A stretch of 64,000 nt of DNA from the NCBI GenBank assembly GCA_910586225.1, contig CAJUIL010000014.1, positions 22,966-86,965 of the forward strand. Reading direction: 5' to 3'. A model generated the notes under the pieces. The model was not told where the DNA came from. It searched no databases and saw only the letters and a list, made by a program, of their open reading frames with translations. A program made the position numbers and the translations under genes. Source of the stretch: an uncultured Eubacterium sp. (GTDB lineage: Bacteria; Bacillota; Clostridia; Lachnospirales; Lachnospiraceae). Positions 5,478-29,394 of this stretch are shown here, piece by piece. Every line of letters starts with the position of its first letter. Within the stretch, counting starts at the first letter, position 1.

Positions 5478-5722
5478 TTTCCTCCCTCAACCGGCGCCCG
5501 CGGTTCTTTGCAGAGGTTTCGGCCTGTACGGATATTCCGGCTCGGCAAGCCGCTGTCCAGCCTTCTCAGATCTCGTCCAATGGCATACTTCCAAATTGTG
5601 GCATTTGGTCAGGTCAGCGGCATCCTGCATCCGATCGGATGCACCAGTGCCTTACGGCGACGGGCTCGCACAGGATTCACACCTGTTTCCCCGTTCAGTC
5701 CGGTATTTATCATAACCATTTA
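5478..5722 (-). promoter_or_regulatory. Cobalamin (AdoCbl) riboswitch
   Basis: The minus-strand RNA contains GGGGAAACAGGUGUGAAUCCUGUGCGAGCCCG, matching the GGGAA..GGUGnnAAUCC..CCCG core. A B12-box-like GGCACUGG and a downstream GCCACAAUUUGGAAG follow. An expression-platform hairpin (AACCGCGGGCGCCGGTT) sits next to the RBS of the lipoprotein gene. Confidence 0.65.
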
Positions 5723-5841
5723 CCGCATTCCCGTCAACTGAAAAATTGCAAAAAAATCTGCCGCACTGGGAATGTCAGAACAAACATCCCGATGCGGCAG
5801 ACGATCTCATAGAAAAGGCAAGCCTGTCCGAACCGTGCCTC

Positions 5842-16253: not shown

Positions 16254-16333
16254 TGCCGCTGATGGGACTTGAACCCATATGGTTTCCCGTACGATTTTGA
16301 GTCGTATGCGTCTGCCAATTCCGCCACAGCGGC
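16254..16333 (-). tRNA. tRNA-Leu (anticodon CAA)
   Basis: Reverse complement GCCGCTGTGGCGGAATTGGCAGACGCATACGACTCAAAATCGTACGGGAAACCATATGGGTTCAAGTCCCATCAGCGGCA. It has a 7-bp acceptor stem, anticodon stem TACGA/TCGTA, loop CTCAAAA with anticodon CAA, an extra arm, and a T-loop GGTTCAAGTCC. No encoded CCA. Confidence 0.75.
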
Positions 16334-18294: not shown

Positions 18295-18470
18295 TGCAAC
18301 CCGTTACTGAAAACTTATAAAAAGCTATAAACTTTTATGTTCCATTCCTACTTCATTGTATATGCTTTTGATTTGTATTTCTACAATATCTACTTACAAA
18401 TTCTTGTACACTCCATAGGCGTAAATTCCTGACTAACGAATCAGTACATATCTGTATGAACTTGAAAATG

Positions 18471-25456: not shown

Positions 25457-26083
25457 TTAATATTGAAACTCAGTTGTATCAATCACTTCCCATGTTTTAT
25501 CAGAAATCTTAAATGCCAGCTCATCAAGCTTGTCTACCGGCACATAAAGGATACCTGTGATCAGCTCTTCATAAAATTTGGCCACCAGCGGCATTGCAGC
25601 TCCGTCCTCAAACTTTAGGAGCGCTTTGCCAAGTGCAGCTATTATAAATGGCGGATAACCGATCGCTTTGCAGATTTCTTTCATATCTTTGGATTTTATC
25701 GCTTTCATTACTGTATCATGCGCAACAATCCTTGCCTTTTCCCATCCATTATTAAGATTGTCTTGCATAGCCTTCATAAACGTGCTATGTTTGAGTCCGG
25801 CTAAATAAGTTGACCGAAACGTCATATCACTCGGATAACAGATACATGGGATACGTCTACAGATCCCATTCCCCGGCGCTTTTGCAAACTGCTTACGCCA
25901 ATCGTCAAACAACTTATGAAAATCCGTATGCTGCCAGGATTGGATCGGACAGCACGTATAATCAGGCGCAGCGTCATACTCAGCCGCTTTTTCAGGCAGC
26001 ATCGCCACCTGTTTGACTATAAAATTTTGTTTCTGATAAATAATTTTACCATATGGTCTCCAGTCATTCGTCTCAACTCTCAT
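25457..26083 (-). CDS. Hypothetical protein (208 aa)
   Basis: Clean ORF with RBS GGAGGATATAAAATG. No family recognised. Confidence 0.4.
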   Translation of the reverse strand: MRVETNDWRPYGKIIYQKQNFIVKQVAMLPEKAAEYDAAPDYTCCPIQSWQHTDFHKLFDDWRKQFAKAPGNGICRRIPCICYPSDMTFRSTYLAGLKHSTFMKAMQDNLNNGWEKARIVAHDTVMKAIKSKDMKEICKAIGYPPFIIAALGKALLKFEDGAAMPLVAKFYEELITGILYVPVDKLDELAFKISDKTWEVIDTTEFQY

Positions 26084-26118
26084 TTTATATCCTCCGTCGA
26101 TTTAAAATAAACGCACTC

Positions 26119-26150
26119 TTATATTTATCGACAGAAATTGAAAAAAAAGA
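26119..26150. repeat. R1 repeat copy A (TTATATTTATCGACAGAAATTGAAAAAAAAGA); copy B at 27306-27335
   Basis: About 30 bp at roughly 90% identity, in the same orientation, bracketing the TA region. Copy A overlaps the likely promoter of gene 25457..26083. Confidence 0.6.
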
Positions 26151-26422
26151 AACCATCACTTCTGTATTTCCATTCGAACGAGCCAAATATCATTTACAAA
26201 CAGCTCACCTTCAAAAAATACCCGCTGGATGGCAGAAATGGCTGCCAGTGTGAAACACCATGCAGCAACAGCGCTTATGGCAGGACTGTACACACAAGGG
26301 CCTCTGATGATCCAATGCTGGTTACTGACCCGCCGCGCGGGAGTAGTGAGTGGGAAACGGAATACGCCAAAAGGACTTCCGTAGAGCGGTCCAACAAGCG
26401 CGAAAAATTTCCCGCCTGCAAG

Positions 26423-26528
26423 TGTTATAATAATAAGTGCAGATGATGTATGTTGTATCTGGCATGGTTGATATACGCTTTGCATTCTGACAGCGGTGTT
26501 ACGATTACTGCTGCCATTTGATATTTCA
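26423..26528 (+). repeat. R2 element copy A: extended -10 promoter (TGTTATAAT) plus ~90-nt conserved non-coding leader (candidate sRNA); copy B at 27099-27200
   Basis: Both copies start with TGTTATAAT, followed by gtatgttgtatctgg and a conserved hairpin (CAGCAGTG...CACTGTTG in B; a compensated variant in A). Overall about 75% identity. Conservation is not frame-consistent, so it is non-coding. Confidence 0.5.
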
Positions 26529-26530
26529 AT

Positions 26531-26862
26531 TTAACTGTTAATAATTGTACAAACTTTGTCCATGCATTCCGATAGTTTTTCGTCACTCAAATGACCGATT
26601 CGATATAAGATGATTTTTCGGTCTAACGTAAATATTTTGTTTGGACGGATGTTACTGTCCAGATGGAGTGAGCCGGATACGAGATCTGCTTCTGCAAGGG
26701 GTATTCGTATGTGTCGTTGACATTCTTGGACGTGATCTGCAGCATGATATAGTCGTCGCCCGTTATGCCAGAAAGTATGAGGGCGGGGCGCCTTTTTGCA
26801 GAGCTTAGATCCGTGAATGGGAATGGAAGCACGATGACATCGCCTTTTATAAATGTTTCCAT
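26531..26862 (-). pseudogene. PemK/MazF-family type II toxin, frameshifted
   Basis: The N terminus METFIKGDVIVLPFPFTDLSSAKRRPALILS is in one frame (26623..26862). A MazF-like C terminus (...KIFTLDRKIILYRIGHLSDEKLSECMDKVCTIINS) is in another frame (26531..~26640). Confidence 0.6.
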
Positions 26863-27035
26863 GCATCGTCCTCCTCTTTCCGCAGCCAGTCTTTGGCAAG
26901 ACTTGGCTCGCTTAAGAATGCGTTGTTAATATCTGTTTCTTCATGCAGGATGAATTTTACAAAGGCAAGGATGATATCCAGTTTGCTTTCGGGTACATCT
27001 GCGATCAGATGTTCAAGTAATTGTTGTTTTGACAT
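26847..27035 (-). CDS. Type II antitoxin (MazE/PemI-like, ...AWKHL C terminus)
   Basis: 62 aa, overlaps the toxin start by 16 nt. C-terminal SEPSLAKDWLRKEEDDAWKHL is typical of antitoxins paired with PemK/MazF. Confidence 0.55.
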   Translation of the reverse strand: MSKQQLLEHLIADVPESKLDIILAFVKFILHEETDINNAFLSEPSLAKDWLRKEEDDAWKHL

Positions 27036-27370
27036 TTTCTATAATCCTTTCTTTTATTTTTGTATTTAAACTTTTTCTCTCAATTTCCTGCCGGCAGATG
27101 TTATAATACAGATGCAGGCGGTATGTTGTATCTGGTATGATGTAAAGTTTGCAAGGCGGCAACAGTGTTCCTGGCACTGCTGCATTTTCTATTTCTATAT
27201 GAAACATCGGGTAGAAGATACCCCTTACAGAGTATCAGCCCCCACAATACGTTACCGCATATCACCCAAGACTCGCTACGGATGGATAAAAGTTGTAAAG
27301 TCGTGTTATATTTATCGGCAGAAATTAAAAAAAGATAATCTAATATATTGACCCATAAACAGCGCAGCAC

Positions 27371-28069
27371 TTAAAAAATCTGCTTAACTGCATACACCCC
27401 CTGCATTTTTTCAAGATAATAGACAACCTGCGCATTACTGCGATCCTCCGGGAGCCTTAAGGAAATGACCGCGTTGTATACCCCGCCGTCCTTTGGCTCG
27501 TTCAAGATCACATTGCCGACTTTCAGCCCGAACGCCTCCGCAGCAGAACGGATTTCCTGGAGTTTTACCACATCATGGAACTCGACATAGACGCGCATCC
27601 ACATATCATTGTGTGTAAAATGGTCGGAAATACCGCGAAACTTCGTCACAACAATATAAACCGCTCCCGTAGCAAGAATACCGCCCACATAAAACCCAAT
27701 CCCAATCGCAAGGCCGATACACGCGGCAGCCCACAAGCCTGCCGCTGTCGTCAGCCCTCGGATCTTTGTATTGCCTTCAATAATAATGCTGCCCGCTCCC
27801 AAAAACCCGATCCCGCTGACGACCTGGGCGCCCAGCCTGGCCGGATCTCCGGTATGAAACTCCTCATACATATATTCTCCTGTCAGCATCACAAGCGCCG
27901 CGCTCATGCACACCAGCGAATAGGTGCGCATCCCAGCCGAACGGTTTGCCTTGCCCCGTTCGATGCCCAGGATTCCCCCACATAAAATGGAAAGGGAGAG
28001 CCGCAGGATACCGGAAAAAATACGCATATTTTCAGCTTCACTGATCAAATTTAAAAACCACTGTCCCAT
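27371..28069 (-). CDS. mgtC: MgtC/SapB-family membrane protein
   Basis: N-terminal MgtC domain (ILRLSLSILCGGILGIERG) plus a C-terminal ACT-like domain. A G8 tract lies in the RBS region at 28080-28087. Confidence 0.8.
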   Translation of the reverse strand: MGQWFLNLISEAENMRIFSGILRLSLSILCGGILGIERGKANRSAGMRTYSLVCMSAALVMLTGEYMYEEFHTGDPARLGAQVVSGIGFLGAGSIIIEGNTKIRGLTTAAGLWAAACIGLAIGIGFYVGGILATGAVYIVVTKFRGISDHFTHNDMWMRVYVEFHDVVKLQEIRSAAEAFGLKVGNVILNEPKDGGVYNAVISLRLPEDRSNAQVVYYLEKMQGVYAVKQIF

Positions 28070-28101: not shown

Positions 28102-29394
28102 TTAGTTTCTTGCTACCCGTCTTTCCAGCCGCCTCTGCTTTATTTTCTTGATCTTGTCCATACCGCTGCCCTGTCCGAAATACAAAGCGACGGAAGATAA
28201 GATCATCAAAACGACTGTATAGACAAAACTCATCGCCCTGGCATCCACAGATGCGGATTCATCGGACGCTGCTTTGATCACAACCGACATGACCATCGGG
28301 AAGATTACCGGAAGGATCACCTTGCGCATCGTAGTAAACGCGCCTGCACCCATGCATTTTGCTGCTTCCTCCAAGTCGCCGTCCAGCGAGAAGAACGCCG
28401 CTTTGATCATCCGGCAGGAAAACGGCAGTTTAATCACCGTATAGCCAATCAATAAGATCACGGTCGTTCCTACAAGCACTTTGTTGAAGATCAGCGGATT
28501 TTTATCGCCATAAGCTACAGTAAGTCCTAACGCGATCAATGTGCTCGGCAAAAGCCATGGAATCAGCACGCCGTATTCAAACAATACATTCAGCTTGTTT
28601 TTGGACTTCTGTACAAACCGGACGCAGATCACCGAGACTGCCGCCCTTTTCGATTTTACTGAAAACAGACAGCACCCCGCCGATAATGACCGGAGCCGCC
28701 ATAGCGCCATATCCAGCTCTTGGTAAATACGCTCGCCATCCTTTTCCATCCACGCCATATCAATACGCACAAGGTCGAAAACCGTTTCCTGTCCCGCCTG
28801 CATCTTCGATACCATTCTGCGCAGCTCATCATAAGGCACTTCAATAACCTTGACATCAATGCCGGACTGCTTTTTAAACAGCGGCAGAAGCCTTCGAATC
28901 GCTTTGCTTGTCGCATTTTTGACCGATAACAGGCGCAAGGTTTCTTTTGCCATATGCAGGCTGTCAACATCTTCATCAGACCTTGCAATTACCGCATCAA
29001 ACGAATCTGCCGCATACAGCACGTCAAACGCCCTGTTAAATTTCATAGGATCCGTTGCTGCGAAAACCTCAAAATAGCAGCCTTCACTCTCAAACACTTC
29101 CGATACCGCTTCTATAAACCTTTTGTCATCTGTAAAGCTAACATCCTCGCATAATACCGCGATATTTTTGTTCCCATCCCGCACGCATTTTTCCGCGATC
29201 TCCTTGCCTGCCCTCGCATAGTCAAACGTCGCAAACACAGAATGCTTCGGAAATCCCTTCACATATCTGTCCAGCATCATGATCCGCGTCCCTTCCGGAA
29301 CCGACGCCTTATTTTTCAACAGCGAGCTTACAAGGATCACCGCTGTCGGATTACGGGAAAGCGCCTTGCTTAACAGCCTATATCTGTTACTCAT
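28102..29394 (-). pseudogene. Mosaic ORF: LacI-type ligand-binding half + solute-binding-protein segment + ABC permease C terminus (EAA loop). Probably a degraded transport locus
   Basis: Residues 1-160 resemble the second half of a LacI/PBP-I sensor domain. Residues 170-240 resemble an SBP family-1 N terminus. Residues 270-430 are an ABC permease C-terminal half (LDGDLEEAAKCMGAGAFTTMRKVILP). No single known architecture fits. Confidence 0.35.

Follow-up and report, generated by a model that had tools for sequence, protein, structure and literature searches.

Why should a toxin-antitoxin (TA) cassette be enclosed by two nested pairs of direct repeats? The question is posed by a 64,000-nt stretch of DNA (referred to here as the window) from an uncultured Eubacterium sp. 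of the Lachnospiraceae (GenBank assembly GCA_910586225.1, contig CAJUIL010000014.1, positions 22,966 to 86,965 of the forward strand), in which a frameshifted PemK/MazF pair lies between the two copies of an inner repeat, R2, and of an outer repeat, R1. A preliminary description, made from the sequence alone, had regarded these repeats as duplicated non-coding elements within a decaying, rearranged addiction or defense module. We find that R2 represents a family of >160 copies of ∼115- to 125-nt non-coding modules that reside in prophages of gut Clostridia (mostly Lachnospiraceae), next to the genes of large serine recombinases (LSRs), and that each module is probably a small RNA (sRNA) gene. 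The repeats that bracket the cassette are best read as footprints of lost prophages, not as parts of an addiction module; the window locus is itself an ordinary mosaic of relics, and the R2 family is the interesting part.

Repeats of the window and their relatives

When the region was compared with the whole window by BLAST, the R2 repeat was recovered at 26406-26530 (R2A) and 27082-27198 (R2B), with 70.4% identity over 125 nt (E = 3e-7). The R1 repeat, at 26119-26151 (R1A) and 27306-27338 (R1B), is 33 nt long and 88% identical between its copies; in the same self-comparison it gave 92.9% identity over 28 nt (E = 1e-5). Both copies of R1 share one orientation, as do both copies of R2. The self-comparison returned these two pairs and no further copy in the 64-kb window, and a scan of the window with a covariance model (CM), run with filters off, found no third R2. 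Each R2 contains one perfect extended -10 element, TGTTATAAT, at 26423-26431 in R2A and at 27099-27107 in R2B. The preliminary description was thus right that both repeats are real and that each R2 carries a perfect extended -10, and they are the sole copies in the window. Two of its details needed correction: the R2 similarity reaches 17 nt further 5′ than had been written, and the palindrome CTGCCGGCAG lies at 27088-27097, one base away from the position first given (27089-27098).

Relatives of R2 were first gathered with a pattern linking the -10 box to a conserved 14-mer. True homologues were found in five other genomes (from Acetatifactor, Lachnospiraceae, “Eubacterium” and a metagenome-assembled genome labelled Bacteroides), and the similarity of these loci to the window is limited to R2 itself. 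In four of the five genomes, R2 immediately precedes the gene for a 456- to 459-aa LSR and is oriented away from it; in the fifth, the recombinase beside R2 is a pseudogene. The associated LSRs have Resolvase, Recombinase and Zn_ribbon_recom domains. A pattern restricted to the core matched 40 viral contigs in IMG/VR and at least 120 contigs in metagenomes of human, mouse and termite gut. Among the matches listed, the opposite strand carries an LSR open reading frame (ORF) that starts at a distance of 39-72 nt from the core in 130 of 165 R2 copies. On the other side of the module, the hairpin is followed at once by the end of a convergent ORF in 128 of the 135 copies that could be evaluated. 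These convergent ORFs fall into 15 unrelated families, including XRE repressors, lipoproteins, membrane proteins and SWIM proteins, and as a set they are typical variable cargo.

The position of the module within its element can be read from the flanking sequence. Many viral contigs terminate at the LSR 3′ end, and an ABC-ATPase gene cut at its Walker-B motif abuts the LSR 3′ end in 76 of the 111 cases with flanking sequence; the prophage thus ends at the recombinase gene, with R2 located inside the element. ABC-transporter ATPase genes are the integration targets of the LSR prophages that carry R2, with a conserved attB inside a protein-coding motif. Two examples, L007 (4829-5386) and L013 (3893-4657), display the ATPase ORF convergent with the LSR gene and cut right after the Walker-B sequence ILADEPTG. 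R2 itself was considered as an attachment site of the LSR (attP, attL or attR) and rejected, since it is intact in integrated elements whose junction is at the LSR 3′ end; an att site of this kind, an imperfect palindrome of ∼40-50 bp, is split on integration and comes to lie where prophage and host meet.

Retrieval anchored on the LSR protein, combined with the CM, showed that almost every LSR of the clade, down to 55% identity, is preceded by an R2-like unit. The LSRs linked to R2 include two clades that are only ∼25% identical to each other (L262, L166 and L181 compared with L242) and that carry the same R2 core, yet within the main clade the core decays once LSR identity falls below ∼70%. 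This combination suggests that R2 is exchanged as a module. As for earlier records of the family, Rfam 15 gave nothing credible at E values up to 10 over positions 25900-27500 and nothing at E values up to 1 for four intact family members, and R2 had no match in the isolate phages of INPHARED or the plasmids of PLSDB. We found no description of an LSR-adjacent sRNA in the literature, and the R2 core is absent from the 200 files covered, out of 408, in the supplements of a human-microbiome structured-RNA catalogue (PMC8040213).

Where do the two copies in the window belong within this family? Over their whole length, R2A and R2B are 68.5% identical to each other. The nearest relative of R2A is L212 (85.6%), with which it has lineage-specific insertions in common and which occupies a normal prophage end (XRE, lipoprotein, R2). 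R2B is 87.5% identical to L241 and 84.8% identical to L009 (81.9% to L009 over 27072-27194), both of which are relics beside LSR pseudogenes. Judged by these identities, R2A and R2B are two sub-lineages of one family and not a local duplication, because each is far closer to a copy in another organism than to its partner in the window. The term “duplicated,” used for them at first, does not hold. No LSR is encoded anywhere in the 64-kb window, which makes both copies orphans.

Could R1 and R2 nonetheless have arisen in place, by in situ duplication or by a Campbell-type insertion around the TA operon that left them behind as att-site or target duplications? The direct, nested order of the parts (R1, R2, cassette, R2, R1), the coincidence of the cassette ends with the R2 ends and the 88-93% identity of the R1 copies all speak for such an event. 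We consider it improbable, given that the foreign copies are so much closer than R2A and R2B are to each other, that R2A has its indels in common with L212, that there is no crossover point within R2, and that R2 stays intact inside integrated prophages. For R1 alone, a recombinational origin is possible. Considerably less credible again is the proposal that R2 is the end of an insertion sequence (IS) or of a miniature inverted-repeat transposable element (MITE). The fragment of an IS1182 transposase that adjoins R2A and the many copies of R2 in metagenomes might point that way, but there is one R2 per locus, always beside an LSR gene; the module has no terminal inverted repeats and no target duplications, and no inverted partner was found; the 64 kb contain only two copies, both direct; and R2B and >160 other copies occur without a nearby IS, the IS homology stopping at the boundary of R2A. 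The preliminary description had named a known IS or MITE end as the finding that would overturn its view of R2. A mobile element does account for R2, though as an internal prophage module beside the integrase gene and not as an IS or MITE end. Chance resemblance or low complexity, to which the short and AT-rich R1 might lend itself, can practically be dismissed in view of the E values within the window, of R2 matches in other organisms down to 5e-29 and of CM scores up to 140 bits; for R2 it is refuted.

Two further identities were tried for R2 and discarded. An integron attC site or cassette array was set aside on logical grounds, since intI is absent, R2 does not form an imperfect palindrome from end to end, and the module is tied to LSR genes. 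Nor is its second hairpin a generic, genome-wide terminator repeat, the loop motif being essentially confined to R2, plus a solo relic in L366 and L367.

R2 as a candidate small RNA gene

Read along the plus strand, an R2 module consists of the extended -10 box TGnTAnnnT, the near-invariant core GGTATGTTGTATCTGGTATGAT, the motif TTTGCA, and a GC-rich hairpin, the loop of which is a conserved TTCCCAG, ahead of a T-rich tail. The strand and RNA character of the module were assessed on 34 representatives that are mutually <93% identical. TGnTAnnnT is present on the plus strand in all 34 and on the other strand in 8. In the 9 nt past the hairpin, at least four T residues occur in 34 of 34 representatives and at least five in 32, and a U-rich tail on the other strand was seen in none of the 34. 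Pairing in the terminator stem amounts to 93%, with changes on both sides in 10 of its 12 pairs; not one of 500 shuffles reached the observed values, and sliding the partner columns dropped the pairing to 23-50%. Within this stem, 30 cells of the alignment are G-U on the plus strand, against 10 that are A-C.

The fold predicted by RNAalifold comprises a 5′ hairpin plus the terminator, with the first bases of the RNA (GCAG) pairing with the conserved TTGCA. In the 5′ hairpin the core pairs with itself through a structure with 4-6 G-U pairs that the other strand is unable to adopt. Intact family members fold far better than their shuffles (z = -4.6 and -7.6). Five diverged, barely alignable relatives retain the extended -10, the 5′ hairpin, the GC hairpin and the U-tail, with z values of -2.7 to -7.7. 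At the level of sequence, then, the module has a promoter of its own, whose position and strand are kept in the diverged relatives too, and an intrinsic terminator on the same strand. The comparative evidence for an sRNA gene of ∼80-90 nt is strong as far as sequence goes, and we think it probable that R2 is expressed as such. The preliminary description had seen in R2 an RNA-like plus-strand unit, and a promoter, a conserved RNA and a terminator hairpin are indeed kept in hundreds of relatives; the compensated hairpin that it noticed is real and covaries across the family. Two other readings of the same features were examined and abandoned. A micro-ORF in the core (MLYLV*) loses its stop in R2A and L212 by insertion and has no usable ribosome-binding-site spacing, and a symmetric bidirectional promoter serving both the sRNA and the integrase would require a minus-strand extended -10, which is found in just the 8 of 34 representatives mentioned above and is not conserved.

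The two orphans differ in condition. R2B (27072-27198, plus strand), assigned by CM, by fold and by its identity to L009 and L241, is the better preserved. It keeps the promoter (extended -10 at 27099-27107), the 5′ hairpin (27113-27153) and the terminator (hairpin at 27156-27183 and T-rich tail at 27184-27197), with one mismatch; a terminator scanner calls a site at 27163-27179, and the copy is invariant among four strains. From these features R2B looks potentially functional. R2A (26406-26530, plus strand), assigned by CM, by fold and by its nearest relative L212, is degenerate. Its extended -10 (26423-26431) is followed by a 5′ hairpin at ∼26438-26484, a terminator-like hairpin at ∼26488-26516, which is weak as a terminator, and a T-rich tail to 26530; 4 of its 125 positions vary among the same four strains. 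The CM scores, 87.9 bits for R2A and 111.4 bits for R2B, come from a model in whose training set both copies were included.

Several observations weigh against R2 as an sRNA gene. Its promoter and terminator are predictions from sequence. Changes in the 5′ hairpin are one-sided only, being transitions opposite G or U, so that this hairpin provides a weak test. The two window copies fold no better than shuffled sequences (z = -1.6 and -1.7), and R2A has lost the conserved TTCCCAG loop (it reads TTACGAT) and has a shortened stem. The invariance of the core and the missing two-sided covariation in the 5′ hairpin are partly a matter of ascertainment, because the family was first collected with exact patterns that fixed most of the core. 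An inverted repeat also surrounds the -10 box (CCGCCTGCA, 17 nt, TGCAGRCGG). It covaries in L006, L009, L255 and L355, with the arms CCCACTG/CAGTGGG in L355 and TCTGCC/GGCAGA in L006, and its pairing is better on the integrase strand, where 35 cells pair exclusively, than on the plus strand, where 16 do. This preference implies an additional function on the integrase strand or at the DNA level. The 5′ arm of the repeat lies upstream of the sRNA promoter and is therefore not part of the plus-strand RNA; the repeat is probably an integrase-leader hairpin or an operator. Finally, any regulation of the integrase by R2 is argued by analogy.

One may go further and deny that R2 is an RNA gene at all. 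It would then be the promoter, operator or 5′ leader of the integrase gene, acting at the DNA level or on the integrase strand, and what look like a plus-strand promoter and terminator would have arisen incidentally from an AT-rich box and from the hairpin located behind the cargo gene. The distance of R2 from the integrase start, always 39-72 nt, agrees with such a role, as do the covarying inverted repeat around the AT box and the placement of the hairpin immediately behind the cargo stop codon. We nevertheless find this account unlikely. The extended -10 is directional, the T-tail is confined to the plus strand, the terminator stem favors G-U over A-C cells on that strand, the 5′ hairpin with its G-U pairs is impossible on the integrase strand, and even the diverged loci keep the promoter, the two hairpins and the U-tail on the plus strand. 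An RNA gene and a leader or operator are, moreover, compatible roles, and the R2 module may be doing both.

A possible role for R2 in control of the integrase

If R2 is an sRNA gene, its placement suggests what the RNA could do. In an intact prophage the order is cargo genes, R2, integrase gene, with the genes on one strand and the R2 unit on the other, so that integrase transcripts starting upstream cross the sRNA gene in antisense. Each R2 would specify an sRNA of ∼80-90 nt, made up of a G-U-rich 5′ hairpin and then an intrinsic terminator, and this RNA would be fully complementary to integrase transcripts reading in from lysogeny or cargo genes located upstream. Placed ∼45 nt ahead of the integrase start, a strong antisense unit that terminates its own transcription could damp such read-through, whether by transcriptional interference, by duplex formation and cleavage, or by both. 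On the model of known antisense systems, we tentatively propose that the R2 sRNA restrains the integrase. The family does not support the design envisaged in the preliminary description, in which sRNAs from the two window copies would run antisense into the toxin gene and toward mgtC: the family unit faces away from the integrase gene and stops at its own terminator before the convergent cargo.

The closest precedents are antisense RNAs encoded in cis by mobile elements, where they hold back the expression of a recombinase or transposase; examples are RNA-OUT of IS10, which opposes RNA-IN, and art200 of IS200. Like these, R2 is, as far as its sequence tells, a short and structured unit with a strong, constitutive-looking promoter and its own terminator, arranged head-to-head with a recombinase gene; unlike them, its partner is the large serine recombinase of a prophage. 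RNA-OUT overlaps the start codon and ribosome-binding site of the transposase gene. The R2 transcript, by contrast, would begin ∼45 nt upstream of the integrase start and run away from it without covering the ribosome-binding site, and it would therefore pair only with transcripts begun further upstream. The sib element of phage lambda, downstream of int, is a cis-acting RNase III site in the int transcript. R2 resembles it as an RNA hairpin beside an integrase gene with a proposed post-transcriptional effect on the integrase, and differs in lying upstream of the gene with a promoter of its own on the opposite strand.

Among phage antisense RNAs, OOP of lambda is antisense to cII and depends on RNase III, and sar of P22 is an antisense RNA of the lysogeny region. 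STnc6030 of the Salmonella prophage BTP1 is an antisense RNA expressed in lysogeny that gives superinfection exclusion (PMC7067206). R2 likewise is a candidate for a small prophage-encoded RNA, antisense to neighboring phage genes and with its own promoter. OOP, sar and STnc6030, which belong to Proteobacteria hosts, have different targets and no sequence or structure similarity to R2. The STnc6030 precedent demonstrates that an RNA of this type is able to act on an incoming phage in trans.

A far-reaching extension of the sRNA reading follows this precedent: R2 would be an undescribed and very common sRNA family of gut prophages, and expressed orphans such as R2B would act in trans to block integrase expression in superinfecting phages, and lysogenization by them, as related phages would offer this RNA a complementary sequence in the corresponding region. 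In favor of an expressed R2B one can cite its intact promoter and structure, its invariance in four strains and its location in a TA and defense island; a ∼25-nt core is, in addition, common to prophages whose integrases are only ∼25% identical. We rate this extension as distinctly speculative, and equally so the related idea that the orphan R2B might be a relic of RNA-based immunity with a logic like that of STnc6030.

Large serine integrases decide lysogeny in abundant phages of gut Firmicutes and are being mined as genome-engineering tools. Should R2 be expressed, it would constitute a widespread, unannotated regulator of these enzymes, present in hundreds of metagenomic contigs. The module can also be used as a marker of the ends and relics of LSR prophages.

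The cassette, R1 and the surrounding relics

Between the two R2 copies lies the TA cassette itself. The antitoxin ORF (26847-27035, minus strand, 62 aa) overlaps the start of the PemK/MazF toxin gene (26531-26862, minus strand) by 16 nt, and the toxin gene is split into an N-terminal frame (26623-26862) and a C-terminal frame (26531-26705). Positions 2-62 of the PemK profile (PF02452) match the frame at 26623-26862, and positions 54-108 match the other frame, within the minus-strand ORF 26531-26899. These gene calls, together with that of mgtC (27371-28069, minus strand; ORF and profile search), agree with the preliminary description. A sigma-70-like promoter candidate for the operon (TTGAGA, 16 nt, AAAAAT) was found at 27056-27083 on the minus strand by a consensus scan, as a pattern match only.

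The frameshift had initially been put near 26630, where the first frame merely meets its stop. Alignment of same-species assemblies identifies a 1-nt deletion between 26705 and 26706: where intact strains have TACGCAATACC on the coding strand, the window has TACGAATACC, and the site is not inside a homopolymer. The deletion shortens the toxin product to 79 aa. Four other same-species assemblies carry an identical locus, three of them with an intact 110-aa toxin that matches PemK at positions 2-108 of 109 (E = 4.5e-12); the record GCA_948957185.1, which has the frameshift allele, equals the window at all compared sites. The frameshift is a real segregating allele and not an assembly error, as the same 79-aa product is present on 12 contigs from several independent samples and assemblers.

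The pair has the makeup of a type II PemK/MazF system, with a PemK/MazF-fold toxin and a co-oriented, overlapping upstream antitoxin; the toxin frame is interrupted in the window and intact in other strains. The antitoxin accompanies the toxin in every homologous cassette examined, and profile searches assigned it to no Pfam or NCBIfam family. The full extent of the mobile cassette (26530-27060, minus strand) emerges from comparison with L366 and L367, which come from another species: nucleotide identity is 86.8% over exactly 27060-26530, with none past either end, so that the cassette directly adjoins an R2 copy on each side. Some related cassettes are cargo near phage integrases, and others occupy plain chromosomal sites; those in L368-L372 lie among helix-turn-helix regulators and other TA pairs beside phage integrases. 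The window cassette is, like the PemK/MazF “moron” cargo of prophages, a standard two-gene PemK operon. Unlike that cargo, its toxin allele is frameshifted and it sits between two orphan integrase-proximal modules with no integrase. In L366 (3370-3400) and L367 (730-760), a solo R2 terminator hairpin with the conserved loop GGCAGCAATGTTCCCAGCACTGCCG follows the toxin gene on the same strand. Here the cassette is associated with R2 independently for a second time, with a relative orientation opposite to that in the window. A 14-nt inverted match (93%), which may be due to chance, links 26691-26704 in the toxin gene, beside the frameshift, to 27218-27231 in spacer Y (27199-27305), a segment between R2B and R1B without similarity to any compared locus.

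The outer repeat has a different source. Downstream of the cassette lies a minus-strand gene for a 208-aa protein (25457-26083) that matches no Pfam family, and R1A precedes it on the same strand as a motif with a T-run and TGTCGATAAATATAA. Homologues of this protein (77-89% identity) are found in different defense and TA islands, with an R1-like upstream region in all. In L135, L138 and L141, three unrelated islands, the R1 motif precedes the start codon of the 208-aa gene by 35-45 nt; BLAST aligns R1A with L141 at 82% over 67 nt, and R1B matches the L141 promoter at 87% over 31 nt. By this comparison R1 is the promoter region of the 208-aa gene and unrelated to R2, and R1B is a second copy of the motif, also on the minus strand, just downstream of mgtC. 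That R1 might be an inverted partial copy of the R2 5′ end was considered and dropped, as the CM gave only 6.7 bits (E = 9.8) at 26115-26151 on the minus strand. The 208-aa gene may be a defense-island gene that moves with its own R1 promoter. Across L135-L141, the neighbors of its homologues are an MmeI-type restriction-modification system, a RelB-PIN pair with a Cas3-like helicase, and a Phd-PIN pair. A search for an empty site by way of these homologues revealed only the movement of the gene between islands.

Between R1A and R2A, directly 5′ of the latter and truncated at its boundary, is a relic of the C terminus of an IS1182-family transposase (26207-26395, plus strand) with the Y-2-R-3-E-6-K motif (YAKRTSVERSNKREK). 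It matches positions 386-449 of the 488 positions of NF033551 at an E value of 5.9e-4, far below the full-length cutoff. In L141, a 36-nt remnant of the toxin 3′ end (83% identity) survives 17 nt upstream of the R1 of that locus, which hints that the order of TA cassette, R1 and 208-aa gene is the older one and that R2A and the IS fragment arrived later. The locus is a mosaic of prophage and island relics and not a purpose-built bracket. In this respect the decaying, rearranged module of the preliminary description is recognizable in the frameshifted toxin allele, the IS1182 fragment and the absence of a recombinase.

Elsewhere in the window, a 430-aa ORF at 28102-29394 on the minus strand is a strain-specific deletion fusion with a periplasmic-binding-protein-like N terminus and an ABC-permease C terminus; L002 and L004 keep an intact substrate-binding protein, ATPase and 579-aa permease, and L001 has a different deletion. 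Rfam matches at gathering scores are a RAGATH-18 RNA (18345-18419), a tRNA (16254-16333) and a cobalamin riboswitch (5513-5733), all on the minus strand.

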